Assembly: GCF_016026235.1 (NCBI RefSeq)
Contig: NZ_CP065613.1
Strand: one strand, 5' to 3'
DNA: 64,000 bases
Origin: Escherichia coli
Lineage (GTDB): Bacteria; Pseudomonadota; Gammaproteobacteria; Enterobacterales; Enterobacteriaceae
Positions 12,001 through 18,000 of the stretch are shown in pieces. Positions within the stretch are counted from its first letter, which is position 1. The number at the start of each line of letters is the position of its first letter. A program made the position numbers.

Positions 12001-15000
12001 CTTCCTTTGTCCTGCTGACATTCTACGCTATTTGCCTGCGAAACGTGCGCGGCGCAACTAACGCTTAGTTCACATAAAATAACACACAATGTTAATTTTT
12101 GTGAATCAGCTCACCATATCGTTATCTTCCAGCGCTTATATTCACAATATCAAACAAAATATCACTTAAATTAACAAGGAGAGCAGATGAAAACGGGATC
12201 TGAGTTTCATGTCGGTATCGTTGGCTTAGGGTCAATGGGAATGGGAGCAGCACTGTCATGTGTCCGCGCAGGTCTTTCTACCTGGGGCGCAGACCTGAAC
12301 AGCAATGCCTGCGCTACGTTGAAAGAGGCAGGTGCTTGCGGGGTTTCTGATAACGCCGCGACGTTTGCCGAAAAACTGGACGCTCTGCTGGTGCTGGTGG
12401 TCAATGCGGCCCAGGTTAAACAGGTGCTGTTTGGTGAAACAGGCGTTGCACAACATCTGAAACCCGGTACGGCAGTAATGGTTTCTTCCACTATCGCTAG
12501 TGCTGATGCGCAAGAAATTGCTACCGCTCTGGCTGGATTCGATCTGGAAATGCTGGATGCGCCAGTTTCTGGTGGTGCAGTAAAAGCCGCTAACGGTGAA
12601 ATGACTGTCATGGCCTCCGGTAGCGATATTGCCTTTGAACGACTGGCTCCCGTGCTGGAAGCCGTTGCCGGAAAAGTTTATCGCATAGGTGCAGAACCGG
12701 GACTAGGTTCGACCGTAAAAATTATTCACCAGTTGTTAGCGGGCGTACATATTGCTGCCGGAGCCGAAGCGATGGCACTTGCAGCCCGTGCGGGGATCCC
12801 GCTGGATGTGATGTATGAAGTCGTGACCAATGCCGCCGGAAATTCCTGGATGTTCGAAAACAGGATGCGTCATGTGGTGGATGGCGATTACACCCCGCAT
12901 TCAGCCGTCGATATTTTTGTTAAGGATCTTGGTCTGGTTGCCGATACAGCCAAAGCCCTGCACTTCCCGCTGCCATTGGCCTCAACAGCATTGAATATGT
13001 TCACCAGCGCCAGTAACGCGGGTTACGGGAAAGAAGACGATAGCGCAGTTATCAAGATTTTCTCTGGCATCACTCTACCGGGAGCGAAATCATGATCAAG
13101 ATTGGCGTTATCGCCGATGATTTTACCGGCGCGACGGATATCGCCAGTTTTCTGGTGGAAAACGGTCTACCAACGGTACAAATTAACGGTGTTCCAACAG
13201 GTAAAATGCCGGAAGCAATCGACGCACTGGTGATCAGCCTGAAAACGCGTTCCTGTCCGGTGGTTGAAGCCACACAGCAATCGCTGGCGGCTCTGAGCTG
13301 GTTGCAACAGCAAGGTTGCAAACAGATCTATTTCAAATACTGCTCTACTTTCGACAGTACGGCTAAAGGTAATATCGGCCCGGTTACCGATGCATTAATG
13401 GATGCTCTCGACACGCCGTTTACGGTCTTCTCTCCGGCCCTGCCGGTCAACGGACGTACGGTTTATCAGGGGTATTTGTTCGTAATGAATCAACTGCTGG
13501 CCGAATCCGGGATGCGCCATCACCCGGTAAATCCCATGACCGACAGCTATCTTCCCCGTCTGGTTGAAGCGCAATCCACAGGGCGCTGCGGCGTCGTTTC
13601 GGCACATGTTTTCGAACAAGGTGTGGATGCCGTTCGTCAAGAGCTGGCTCGCTTACAGCAAGAGGGCTACCGCTACGCGGTGCTTGATTCGCTGACCGAA
13701 CACCATCTGGAAATTCAGGGAGAAGCCTTGCGCGATGCCCCACTGGTAACGGGCGGTTCTGGTCTGGCGATTGGCCTGGCCCGGCAGTGGGCGCAAGAAA
13801 ACGGTAACCAGGCTCGCAAAGCAGGGCATCCGCTCGCTGGGCGCGGCGTAGTGCTCTCCGGTTCATGCTCTCAAATGACCAACCGCCAGGTAGCACATTA
13901 CCGTCAAATTGCACCAGCCCGTGAAGTTGATGTGGCACGCTGCCTCTCAATTGAAACTCTGGCCGCTTATGCACACGAACTGGCAGAGTGGGTTCTGGGC
14001 CAGGAAAGTGTACTTGCTCCACTGGTTTTTGCCACCGCCAGCACTGACGCATTGGCAGCAATTCAACAGCAATACGGTGCACAAAAAGCCAGTCAGGCAG
14101 TAGAAACACTGTTTTCTCAACTAGCGGCGCGGTTAGCAGCGGAAGGCGTGACACGCTTTATTGTCGCAGGCGGTGAGACCTCCGGCGTAGTCACACAGAG
14201 CCTGGGAATAAAAGGGTTTCATATTGGCCCAACCATTTCCCCCGGCGTGCCGTGGGTAAACGCACTGGATAAGCCTGTCTCACTCGCCCTTAAATCTGGC
14301 AACTTCGGTGATGAAGCCTTTTTTTCACGAGCCCAAAGAGAGTTTTTATCATGAGCGATTTCGCAAAAGTAGAGCAGTCTTTGCGAGAGGAGATGACGCG
14401 GATTGCCAGTTCATTCTTTCAGCGCGGCTATGCAACCGGTTCGGCTGGCAATCTGTCGCTGCTTTTACCTGACGGGAATTTACTGGCGACACCGACAGGT
14501 TCATGCCTGGGCAATCTCGATCCGCAGCGGCTTTCCAAAGTCGCCGCGGATGGCGAATGGTTAAGTGGTGACAAACCCTCGAAAGAGGTGCTCTTTCATC
14601 TGGCGCTGTATCGCAACAATCCGCGCTGTAAAGCGGTGGTGCATTTGCACAGCCCATGGTCGACGGCGCTTTCCTGCCTGCAAGGGCTGGACAGCAGCAA
14701 CGTTATTCGTCCGTTCACACCATACGTGGTGATGCGGATGGGAAATGTCCCGCTGGTGCTTTATTACCGACCGGGCGATAAACGCATCGCACAGGATCTG
14801 GCGGAACTGGCAGCAGACAATCAGGCTTTTTTACTGGCAAATCATGGCCCAGTGGTTTGCGGTGAAAGCCTGCAAGAAGCCGCCAACAATATGGAAGAGC
14901 TGGAGGAAACGGCAAAGCTGATTTTTATTCTCGGTGACCGCCCGATCCGTTATCTGACCGCAGATGAAATTGCGGAATTAAGGAGTTAATGCAATGCCTC

Positions 15001-18000
15001 GTTTTGCAGCTAATTTATCCATGATGTTCACCGAAGTGCCTTTTATTGAACGCTTCGCCGCAGCGCGAAAAGCCGGGTTCGATGCTGTGGAATTTCTGTT
15101 TCCCTATAACTACTCCACCCTGCAAATCCAAAAGCAACTGGAGCAAAACCATCTGACACTGGCGCTGTTCAATACCGCTCCCGGAGATATTAATGCGGGG
15201 GAATGGGGATTATCCGCCCTTCCCGGACGTGAGCACGAAGCACACGCAGACATCGACCTGGCACTGGAATATGCATTGGCGCTCAATTGTGAACAAGTCC
15301 ATGTGATGGCAGGCGTCGTGCCCGCTGGCGAAGATGCTGAACGGTACCGGGCAGTATTTATCGATAATCTCCGCTACGCTGTCGACCGCTTTGCGCCACA
15401 CGGCAAGCGAATATTAGTTGAAGCACTCAGCCCCGGCGTTAAGCCTCATTATCTCTTCTCCAGCCAGTATCAGGCACTGGCTATTGTTGAAGAAGTTGCG
15501 CGAGATAACGTGTTTATTCAACTAGATACTTTTCATGCGCAAAAAGTAGATGGCAACCTGACGCATTTAATCCGCGACTACGCCGGGAAATATGCGCACG
15601 TACAAATTGCCGGACTACCTGATCGACATGAACCGGACGATGGAGAAATCAACTATCCGTGGCTGTTCCGCCTGTTCGATGAGGTGGGATATCAGGGCTG
15701 GATCGGTTGTGAATATAAACCTCGTGGCCTCACCGAAGAAGGGCTTGGCTGGTTTGACGCCTGGCGCTAATTCGTTAAATCCCTAATTACAACGTACCCA
15801 TACATCCCCCCATCTACGGATGGGGTAGGTTAACTATAACTTTCAGACAGGGTTTCCCATGTCCACAATTACATTGTTATGCATTGCGTTAACTGGCGTA
15901 ATCATGCTGTTGCTGCTGGTCATCAAGGCAAAGGTACAACCATTCGTTGCTCTGCTCCTCGTCAGCCTGTTAGTCGCACTTGCGGCGGGTATACCGGCGG
16001 GCGAAGTGGGTAAAGTGATGATCGCCGGGATGGGCGGTGTGCTTGGTTCCGTCACTATTATTATTGGTCTGGGCGCTATGCTGGGGCGTATGATCGAACA
16101 CTCTGGTGGTGCAGAGTCACTGGCTAATTATTTCAGTCGCAAGTTAGGTGACAAACGAACTATCGCTGCGCTGACTCTGGCAGCGTTCTTCCTCGGTATT
16201 CCCGTCTTCTTTGATGTCGGCTTTATTATTCTTGCGCCAATCATTTACGGTTTTGCCAAGGTTGCCAAAATATCGCCACTCAAATTTGGCCTGCCTGTCG
16301 CTGGGATCATGCTAACTGTACATGTGGCGGTACCGCCGCATCCAGGCCCTGTCGCCGCAGCGGGGTTACTCCACGCAGACATCGGCTGGCTAACCATCAT
16401 CGGTATTGCGATTTCTATTCCCGTAGGGATTGTTGGCTACTTTGCAGCGAAAATAATCAATAAGCGCCAATATGCGATGTCGGTGGAAGTACTGGAACAG
16501 ATGCAACTGGCTCCGGCCAGTGAGGAAGGCGCGACAAAATTAAGCGATAAAATAAATCCACCGGGCGTCGCGCTGGTCACCTCGCTAATTGTTATTCCTA
16601 TCGCGATTATCATGGCGGGTACGGTTTCCGCAACACTGATGCCGCCTTCGCATCCCCTGCTTGGTACGCTACAGCTGATCGGCTCACCAATGGTAGCTCT
16701 AATGATTGCGCTGGTGCTGGCATTCTGGTTATTGGCTTTACGTCGCGGCTGGAGCTTACAACACACCAGCGACATTATGGGCTCAGCGCTTCCTACTGCG
16801 GCGGTAGTGATTTTGGTTACTGGTGCTGGAGGGGTATTTGGCAAAGTGCTGGTGGAATCGGGCGTCGGCAAAGCCCTTGCCAACATGTTACAAATGATTG
16901 ACCTGCCTCTGTTACCAGCCGCATTTATTATTTCACTGGCGCTGCGTGCATCGCAGGGGTCAGCAACCGTAGCAATACTGACAACCGGCGGGTTACTCTC
17001 AGAAGCGGTGATGGGATTGAATCCGATTCAGTGCGTATTGGTGACGCTGGCAGCCTGCTTTGGTGGGCTTGGTGCGTCACATATTAATGACTCAGGGTTC
17101 TGGATTGTGACCAAATATCTGGGATTGTCGGTAGCAGACGGTCTGAAAACCTGGACAGTGTTAACGACCATTCTCGGTTTTACCGGATTCTTAATTACCT
17201 GGTGCGTATGGGCGGTAATTTGACCTTTTATTTAGCGCTTACCTTCCGCCAGCAGCGGCGGAATGCTCGGCACCATTGGCGCGTCATCAATATCTTTCTG
17301 CGTCATGCGGAACGCTTCGGGATAATGTTCGCGGCTGGTGCGGCGTAGCGGTTCGGTATCGCGCCAGGTATAAAGGCAATGCTGGCACTGATATACCGTC
17401 CAGACATCTTTCACCGGCGATTTCGCCATCACTTCAATCTGTTCATCGGCACAACGTGGACAAATCATCTTGTTCTCCTTATTTACGTGCAGCCAGCATA
17501 GCGGTCAGTTTTTCAGCCCAGGCTTTGGTTTCCGGCAAATCCACCACCGGCTGGCTGTAGTGACCACGGTTGTCCGGGGCGACAGGCGTGGTGGCGTCGA
17601 TAATCAGCTTGTCGGTGATCCCCGCCGGGCTTGAGCCAGGGTCGAGTTCCAGCACGGACATATTCGGCAACTGCACCAAATCCCCTGCCGGATTTACTTT
17701 CGAGGAGAGCGCCCACATCACCTGCGGCAGGTTGAACGGGTCAACGTCTTCATCGACCATAATCACCATCTTTACGTAGCCCAGACCGTGCGGCGTGGTC
17801 ATCGCACGCAGGCCCACCGCGCGGGCAAAGCCGCCGTAGCGTTTTTTGGTGGAGATAATCGCCAGCAGGCCGTGGGTGTACATGGCGTTTACCGCCTGCA
17901 CTTCCGGGAACTCGGCTTTCAGTTGTTGATACAGCGGTACGCAGGTGGCTGGCCCCATCAGGTAGTCGATTTCGGTCCACGGCATGCCGAGGTACAGCGA

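Follow-up and report, generated by a model that had tools for sequence, protein, structure and literature searches.

A four-step pathway for the use of L-threonate, formed by the enzymes LtnD, OtnI, OtnK, and OtnC, has been set out in two papers that both cite Zhang et al. 2016 (PNAS 113:E4161), and the bacteria studied no longer grow on L-threonate once the pathway genes are deleted (PMC12540250, PMC12994016). For the K-12 genes b2736, b2738, and b2739, the activities EC 1.1.1.411, 4.1.1.104, and 5.3.1.35 are described as having both in vivo and in vitro validation (PMC12506659). Here, we analyze the corresponding cluster, ygbJKLMN, and its divergent regulator gene ygbI in 64,000 nt of the Escherichia coli contig NZ_CP065613.1 (GCF_016026235.1). 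We call this whole stretch the window, and coordinates are window positions unless another locus is named. The locus is already known, as are the enzymes and the repressor that it encodes, and the cluster is nearly universal in E. coli. We estimate a probability of roughly 0.85 that the locus is the L-threonate utilization operon of E. coli, in which YgbI represses a single ygbJKLMN transcription unit encoding the LtnD-OtnI-OtnK-OtnC pathway to dihydroxyacetone phosphate (DHAP).

The same four enzyme families occur together at this locus, each above its equivalog threshold, which makes it a member of the LtnD-OtnI-OtnK-OtnC group; as in Pectobacterium, genes for a DeoR regulator and a transporter accompany the enzyme genes. 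The chemistry of the enzymes has been established by published work on these families. In the proposed scheme, YgbN would import L-threonate, and LtnD (YgbJ) would convert it with NAD(P)+ to 2-oxo-tetronate. OtnI (YgbM) would then yield 3-oxo-tetronate, OtnK (YgbK) would use ATP to form 3-oxo-tetronate 4-phosphate, and OtnC (YgbL) would turn this product into DHAP and CO2, with DHAP passing into glycolysis. We infer the substrate of YgbN from its co-occurrence with ltnD and its co-regulation, and the inducer of YgbI is likewise a matter of inference.

Two other described routes resemble this scheme in part. The 2-OtnK route (2024 work cited in PMC12540250 and PMC12994016) has the same LtnD first reaction and the same DHAP end but relies on a 2-oxo-tetronate kinase, no isomerase, and a decarboxylase with an F_bP_aldolase domain, whereas the window encodes OtnI and an Aldolase_II decarboxylase. 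The Ltn3D route, named for an L-threonate 3-dehydrogenase of the SDR family (PMC12994016), shares the OtnK and OtnC steps. However, it oxidizes C3 directly and needs no OtnI, whereas the window has an LtnD of the beta-hydroxyacid-dehydrogenase type together with OtnI. A preliminary description of this DNA had assigned the cluster to a threonate/erythronate-type pathway. Our results support this assignment with a refinement: the dehydrogenase is specifically of the L-threonate type, and the cluster holds no D-erythronate dehydrogenase (DenD) gene, so it offers L-threonate entry only. D-erythronate may be a minor substrate, although no dedicated dehydrogenase for it is encoded in the cluster. 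A D-threonate route is ruled out by the score of YgbK against the D-threonate kinase model (130 bits vs. a cutoff of 450).

The five genes lie in a row on the + strand at 12187-17223, exactly as first described. The first, ygbJ (ltnD, 12187..13095), encodes a 302-aa L-threonate 2-dehydrogenase with an NAD_binding_2 domain and an NAD_binding_11 domain. It is followed by ygbK (otnK, 13092..14354), a 3-oxo-tetronate kinase gene of the DUF1537 type with SBD_N and NBD_C domains and a full-length product of 420 aa, and by ygbL (otnC, 14351..14989), which encodes a decarboxylase of the class II aldolase fold. The 258-aa product of ygbM (otnI, 14994..15770) is a 2-oxo-tetronate isomerase with a xylose-isomerase-like TIM barrel, and ygbN (15859..17223) encodes a 454-aa GntP-family permease predicted to import L-threonate. 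The divergent gene ygbI, on the minus strand at 11224..11991, encodes a DeoR-family repressor with HTH_DeoR and DeoRC domains. RefSeq and the family profile both place its start at TTG 11991 (255 aa), and the longest open reading frame (ORF) reaches an upstream ATG at 12021 (265 aa). A Shine-Dalgarno sequence, AGGAAGGAG, precedes the TTG and is conserved across genera (Salmonella, Entomohabitans). Antisense ORFs within ygbJ, ygbK, and ygbN were rejected as genes and regarded as frame noise opposite well-supported genes.

Reading each junction base by base bore out the compact arrangement claimed for the first four genes. The stop of ygbJ and the start of ygbK share ATGA at 13092-13095, as do the stop of ygbK and the start of ygbL at 14351-14354. 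Between the end of ygbL (14989) and the start of ygbM (14994) there is a 4-bp spacer, tgca, and the ygbM Shine-Dalgarno sequence AAGGAG sits within the 3' end of ygbL. In themselves, the ygbJ/ygbK/ygbL overlaps are unsurprising because overlaps of 4 or 1 bp also occur in several other same-strand gene pairs of the window (such as 23870..24919 / 24916..25395 and 17479..18906 / 18906..19499). They are real and conserved features nonetheless. The 4-bp otnK/otnC overlap is kept in the loci of Salmonella enterica subsp. salamae, Entomohabitans teleogrylli, Pectobacterium versatile, and Yersinia canariae, and the ltnD/otnK overlap, of 4 bp or 1 bp, is kept in all three of the compared outside loci that have ltnD. 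The packing from ygbJ to ygbM is predicted to be tight enough for coupled translation. The ygbM-ygbN spacer measures 88 bp and contains a hairpin, CCCCATC-TACG-GATGGGG, whose stability is no better than that of shuffled sequences (z = −0.74), and we make no case for it as an attenuator. No known RNA family was detected when 10000-22500 was scanned with Rfam.

Each of the six proteins was scanned against NCBIfam, with its curated equivalog cutoffs, and Pfam. All six span their family profiles end to end and are the same length as in other wild E. coli, with 98.6%-100% identity to strain PapM-32-1. YgbJ scores 474 bits against the LtnD model NF043037 (cutoff 350), with PF03446 at residues 9-168, PF14833 at residues 172-291, and the N-terminal GxGxxG motif present as GLGSMG at residues 13-18. 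YgbK reaches 597 bits against the OtnK model NF043035 (cutoff 350) and covers profile positions 1-417 of 418; PF07005 matches residues 4-228 and the whole PF17042 profile matches residues 253-411, and the score against the 3-oxo-isoapionate kinase model is below its cutoff (109 vs. 700). For YgbL, the OtnC model NF043034 gives 328.5 bits (cutoff 250), PF00596 (Aldolase_II) covers residues 13-190, and all FucA, AraD, and MtnB models fall below their cutoffs. YgbM scores 393 bits against the OtnI model NF043033 (cutoff 325), with PF01261 (AP_endonuc_2) at residues 21-256. YgbN scores 827 bits against NF007332 (cutoff 524), carries PF02447 (GntP_permease) at residues 5-453, and stays below the cutoffs of the gluconate and D-serine transporter models. 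YgbI scores 483 bits against NF040890 (cutoff 400), has both PF08220 and PF00455, and is below the cutoffs of the AgaR, GlpR, and SrlR models.

These results agree with the dehydrogenase, DUF1537 kinase, class II aldolase-like decarboxylase, isomerase, and GntP permease of the preliminary description, all of which pass their equivalog cutoffs, and neither the kinase nor the decarboxylase turned out to belong to a different family. The nearest solved structures are those of the E. coli or Salmonella proteins themselves: 3G0O is closest to YgbJ, residues 1-418 of YgbK align with the 421-aa Salmonella structure 3DQQ, YgbL matches 6VOP, and YgbM matches 1K77 (YgbM). RefSeq labels the genes ltnD, otnK, otnC, ygbM, ygbN, and ygbI. 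In the genomes listed, RefSeq gives the ygbM product the name “HPr family phosphocarrier protein”, evidently by mistake. The source of the misnomer is a mis-titled NCBIfam model, NF007441 (PRK09989), which bears that title yet is a full-length model of YgbM; the name is applied because NF007441 (585 bits) outscores the correct OtnI model (393 bits).

YgbL shares its fold with E. coli FucA at 31% identity, but its assigned activity is that of a decarboxylase rather than an aldolase. Its residues E79, H98, H100, and H165 align with the glutamate and three histidines of FucA, which we take to be E73, H92, H94, and H155. In class II aldolases the glutamate is the acid/base residue, and the histidine triad of FucA binds zinc. 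All four aligned residues are invariant in 32 OtnC sequences, and the proline of the FucA “PY” motif is kept in wild-type YgbL.

A 6.6-kb query of the cluster matched 5412 of 5426 complete E. coli genomes. Roughly 850 genomes without the exact otnK 56-mer might have been read as lacking the cluster, but we rejected this interpretation given the 5412 regional matches; in the one genome that was inspected, the cluster is complete and its otnK carries an IS1. The order of the divergent DeoR gene and ltnD-otnK-otnC-otnI-gntP is the same in Salmonella, Entomohabitans, and Pectobacterium. Across five compared loci, the GntP permease and ltnD always occur together, and the Yersinia variant has neither. 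This co-occurrence fits L-threonate import by YgbN but does not prove it. The variant, in Yersinia canariae (3611-7406 of its locus), consists of DeoR, otnK, otnC, and otnI only, and ~350 bp of non-coding sequence separates its regulator gene from otnK.

Copies were also found in other genetic contexts. The cluster of Salmonella enterica subsp. salamae is complete at 1843-9480 of a 15-kb contig, with an OtnC that is 90% identical. Its neighbors there are a Rep3 replication gene, IS66 genes, and a gene of the colicin-lysis type, and it looks like a plasmid-borne copy. When plasmids were searched, the query matched 1376 records, 790 of them from Klebsiella, and the Rhizobium and Sinorhizobium matches are their own ltnD genes. 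On plasmid pBSI062-KPC2, a Klebsiella-type ygbI-ltnD-otnK-otnC' fragment (5550-9163), ~71% identical to the window, lies beside blaSHV-12 between IS26 copies. The otnK ORF is split in this plasmid copy, which is the one that was inspected.

K-12 MG1655 carries ygbI and ygbJKLMN (b2735-b2740) at the same site between pphB and rpoS, in the same order and orientation, and its intergenic operator region is equal in length to that of the window. The K-12 proteins are 98.6%-99.6% identical, with 2-3 substitutions each in YgbI, YgbJ, YgbL, YgbM, and YgbN and 2 in the first 384 residues of YgbK. By contrast, the 3' end of ygbK differs through a 1-bp deletion: K-12 has CCCC (3983-3986 of the MG1655 locus), and the window has CCCCC at 14239-14243. 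As a result, K-12 YgbK is 388 aa long, having lost the last 36 residues and gained a 4-residue out-of-frame tail, and it covers profile positions 1-384 of 418. The K-12 gene ends 92 bp before ygbL, whereas the window genes overlap by 4 bp. The intact allele of the window is the common one in E. coli; the K-12 allele occurs in 370 of 5426 genomes and, among the matches listed, mostly in K-12 laboratory derivatives. This frameshift and the 92-bp gap account for the artificial division of the locus into two operons, ygbJK and ygbLM, in databases. A transcript spanning ygbK-ygbL was detected by RNA sequencing and reported as “unexpected” (PMC4168707), and it seemed so because K-12 ygbK is frameshifted. 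The claim that all genes of the window are intact therefore holds for the ORFs, which are full length, unlike K-12 ygbK. It does not extend to guaranteed full function, because OtnC carries a private proline-to-leucine change (P137L) at a near-invariant residue.

Regulation by YgbI has been studied in K-12. Chromatin immunoprecipitation with exonuclease treatment (ChIP-exo) identified a single YgbI site, in the ygbI-ygbJ intergenic region, with its peak at 2859304-2859334 in the older MG1655 numbering (PMC8464067). In the same study, ygbI deletion raised expression by log2 5.55 for ygbJ, 5.15 for ygbK, 5.09 for ygbL, 4.62 for ygbM, and 3.95 for ygbN (PMC8464067). The intergenic region of the window contains a palindrome at 12069..12105, TTCACATAAAATAACA-N5-TGTTAATTTTTGTGAA, an inverted repeat whose 16-nt arms are 88% complementary. 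A third half-site, TCACTTAAATTAACA, is found on the + strand at 12162..12176, directly upstream of the ygbJ Shine-Dalgarno sequence, with the conserved block AACAAAATATCACTTAAATTAACAAGG. When the intergenic region was aligned with its orthologues from four other genera, conservation was highest in the palindrome (above all ATGTTAATTTATGTGA) and the third half-site; across E. coli, Salmonella, Entomohabitans, and Pectobacterium, no intergenic block is better conserved than the palindrome. The 15-nt half-site occurs in three copies at ≤1 mismatch, all of them in the ygbI-ygbJ intergenic region, and the sole other match in the 64 kb has 3 mismatches. With moderate confidence, we propose the 12069-12105 palindrome, which the ChIP-exo peak abuts once converted to window coordinates, as the candidate YgbI operator.

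A promoter-like site for ygbI falls inside the palindrome. A generic promoter and terminator scan of the region gave sites no more numerous than in shuffled sequence and identified no + strand ygbJ promoter. By symmetry, TTCACA-N18-TAATTT, preceded by TG, could be a candidate ygbJ promoter, and the palindrome may hold both divergent promoters; the exact operator and promoter hexamers given here are predictions. The five genes would then form one transcription unit with its promoter in the ygbI-ygbJ intergenic region, and YgbI would hold the operon, and probably itself, off through the conserved palindrome overlapping the promoter.

Several observations weigh against the L-threonate assignment. 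The MG1655 RefSeq record labels all four enzymes “putative”. Converted with the offset between the two MG1655 reference versions, which we take to be +1978, the published ChIP-exo peak falls at ~12039-12069, where it abuts the left arm of the palindrome and does not cover it. The OtnC step could be impaired in this strain through P137L. Moreover, the E. coli growth phenotypes that we found in the literature for this locus concern tartrate and not threonate. These phenotypes raise the possibility that the locus is primarily a route for catabolism of L- or meso-tartrate, with import by YgbN and processing by YgbJ and the enzymes that act after it. Deletion of ygbI enables K-12 to grow on 20 mM L-tartrate (PMC8464067), both independent laboratory evolutions on meso-tartrate acquired ygbI mutations and overexpressed ygbJKLMN (PMC6452873), the tartrate link is also discussed in PMC12862375, and YgbJ has tartronate-semialdehyde reductases as its closest paralogues. 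However, the operon is not induced by tartrate, since the wild type does not grow on it (PMC8464067), and the authors of the evolution study call the activity promiscuous (PMC6452873). The phenotypes also arose in K-12, where OtnK lacks its last 36 residues, so the whole pathway need not be used. In addition, all four enzymes meet the tetronate-pathway thresholds, and a kinase acting on the C4 hydroxyl would have no obvious role on a dicarboxylate. We therefore rate tartrate use as a side activity, given the unresponsive wild type, the authors' own “promiscuous”, and the truncated kinase, and a primary tartrate function appears improbable. Older annotation instead describes a set of the glyoxylate/hydroxypyruvate or fucose type and names a 3-hydroxyisobutyrate (HIBADH) or tartronate-semialdehyde dehydrogenase, a hydroxypyruvate isomerase, a fuculose-phosphate aldolase, and a gluconate permease. 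These names do correspond to the next-best families, and several database sources still call OtnC homologues “fuculose phosphate aldolase”. Yet every such score is below its curated cutoff: for YgbJ, 198 vs. 397 bits for the tartronate-semialdehyde (2-hydroxy-3-oxopropionate) reductase, 157 vs. 292 for HIBADH, and 148 vs. 348 for sulfolactaldehyde reductase; for YgbM, 294 vs. 353 (TIGR03234) and 237 vs. 465 (PRK09997) for hydroxypyruvate isomerase; for YgbL, 75-100 vs. 250-400 for the fuculose-phosphate aldolase models; and for YgbN, 287 vs. 625 for the gluconate transporter. PMC12506659 attributes exactly these names, where given to b2736, b2738, and b2739, to over-propagation errors, and the low identity of YgbL to FucA noted above also speaks against an aldolase. 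With all tetronate-pathway models above cutoff, the older names are refuted at the level of family thresholds, and we give them almost no credence.

A separate question is whether the L-threonate operon still operates in this strain, where its activity is presumed from the sequence. The operon could be decaying and effectively non-functional in this lineage, with the pathway inoperative though the ORFs are intact. The collection contains a single close relative, FDAARGOS_943, with 99.9% identity over 25 kb (the next best is at 98.9%). The two differ by 12 single-nucleotide polymorphisms (SNPs) over the 25 kb, and three of these lie in the 639-bp ygbL, all non-synonymous: V80M in FDAARGOS_943 and P137L and G205D in the window. 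Relative to most E. coli, ygbL of the window has T102P (14654), P137L (14760), and G205D (14964). Of 32 aligned OtnC sequences, 30 (K-12 YgbL among them) have a proline at position 137, and so does FucA; the leucine found here occurs in 0 of 4589 matching genomes, and both P137L and G205D are private to the window. T102P adjoins the HLH motif and is common only to the window and FDAARGOS_943. Decay would also be in keeping with lesions elsewhere, as FDAARGOS_943 ygbM has an IS5-family insertion (15004-16698 of its locus, with a CTAG target duplication), and otnK is frameshifted in K-12 and interrupted by IS1 in an O25:H4 strain. Finally, at the convergent junction between ygbN and the vdcD/ecdD-like gene, only 8 bp (17224..17231) separate the stop codons. 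Alignment with PapM-32-1 revealed a 30-bp deletion between GACCTT direct repeats that took out the hairpin terminator after ygbN. In other strains this hairpin has −21.2 kcal/mol and z = −5.8, with A and U runs on its flanks, whereas the window has no significant structure. A short junction is present in 13 of 5426 genomes, one of which (E300010) has the identical one. However, terminator loss does not stop expression, the ORFs are full length, and the residues aligned to the catalytic glutamate and histidines of FucA are present. Residues 102 and 205 vary among family members, and a single missense change is no proof of inactivation. The clustering of SNPs in ygbL was noted post hoc, with a Poisson P of ~0.004 for one gene and ~0.1 allowing for ~25 genes. 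On balance, we doubt that the operon is defunct in this lineage and retain the L-threonate operon, with a possible weakness at OtnC.

The locus sits in the mutS-rpoS interval of E. coli, which corresponds to window region 10.5-21.2 kb, with mutS at 7850-10411 and pphB at 10517-11173 on the ygbI side. Beyond ygbN lie three minus-strand genes for a predicted hydroxyarylic-acid decarboxylase, namely subunit D (vdcD/ecdD-like, 17232-17468), a UbiD-like subunit C (17479-18906), and a UbiX-like subunit B (18906-19499), followed by a MarR-family regulator gene on the + strand (19646-20053). K-12 lacks these vdcBCD-like and MarR genes between ygbN and rpoS. They may be ancestral at this site because they occupy the same position in Entomohabitans. 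In the O25:H4 strain, genes for an MBL-fold hydrolase and a flavodoxin stand between ygbN and rpoS instead. The window's rpoS (20174-21166, minus strand) has a nonsense mutation, R180* (CGA to TGA at 20627-20629), which truncates sigma-S after region 2. At position 20629, the + strand has A in the window and G in K-12 and FDAARGOS_943, and the 56-mer spanning R180* was found in 1 of 5426 complete genomes (NCTC11151). The window's rpoS stop, 30-bp deletion, and ygbL allele do not occur together in any complete genome of the collection. FDAARGOS_943 rpoS has another lesion, a 1-bp frameshift (21132-22125 of its locus), and its fhlA is frameshifted by a 10-bp indel (5095-7183 of its locus). The pattern of lesions in FDAARGOS_943 and the window suggests long laboratory storage of both strains.

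For E. coli biology, a concrete candidate for the YgbI operator can now be proposed. For curation, the truncation of ygbK should be kept in mind when threonate or tartrate phenotypes of K-12 are interpreted. A broader and more speculative idea, to which we assign a low likelihood, is that L-threonate catabolism is recurrently lost in E. coli lineages kept in the laboratory or otherwise under relaxed conditions, with this strain at an early stage. If true, the K-12 reference copy, on which both the ygbJK/ygbLM split and the tartrate phenotypes are based, would represent one undivided ygbJKLMN operon in damaged form.

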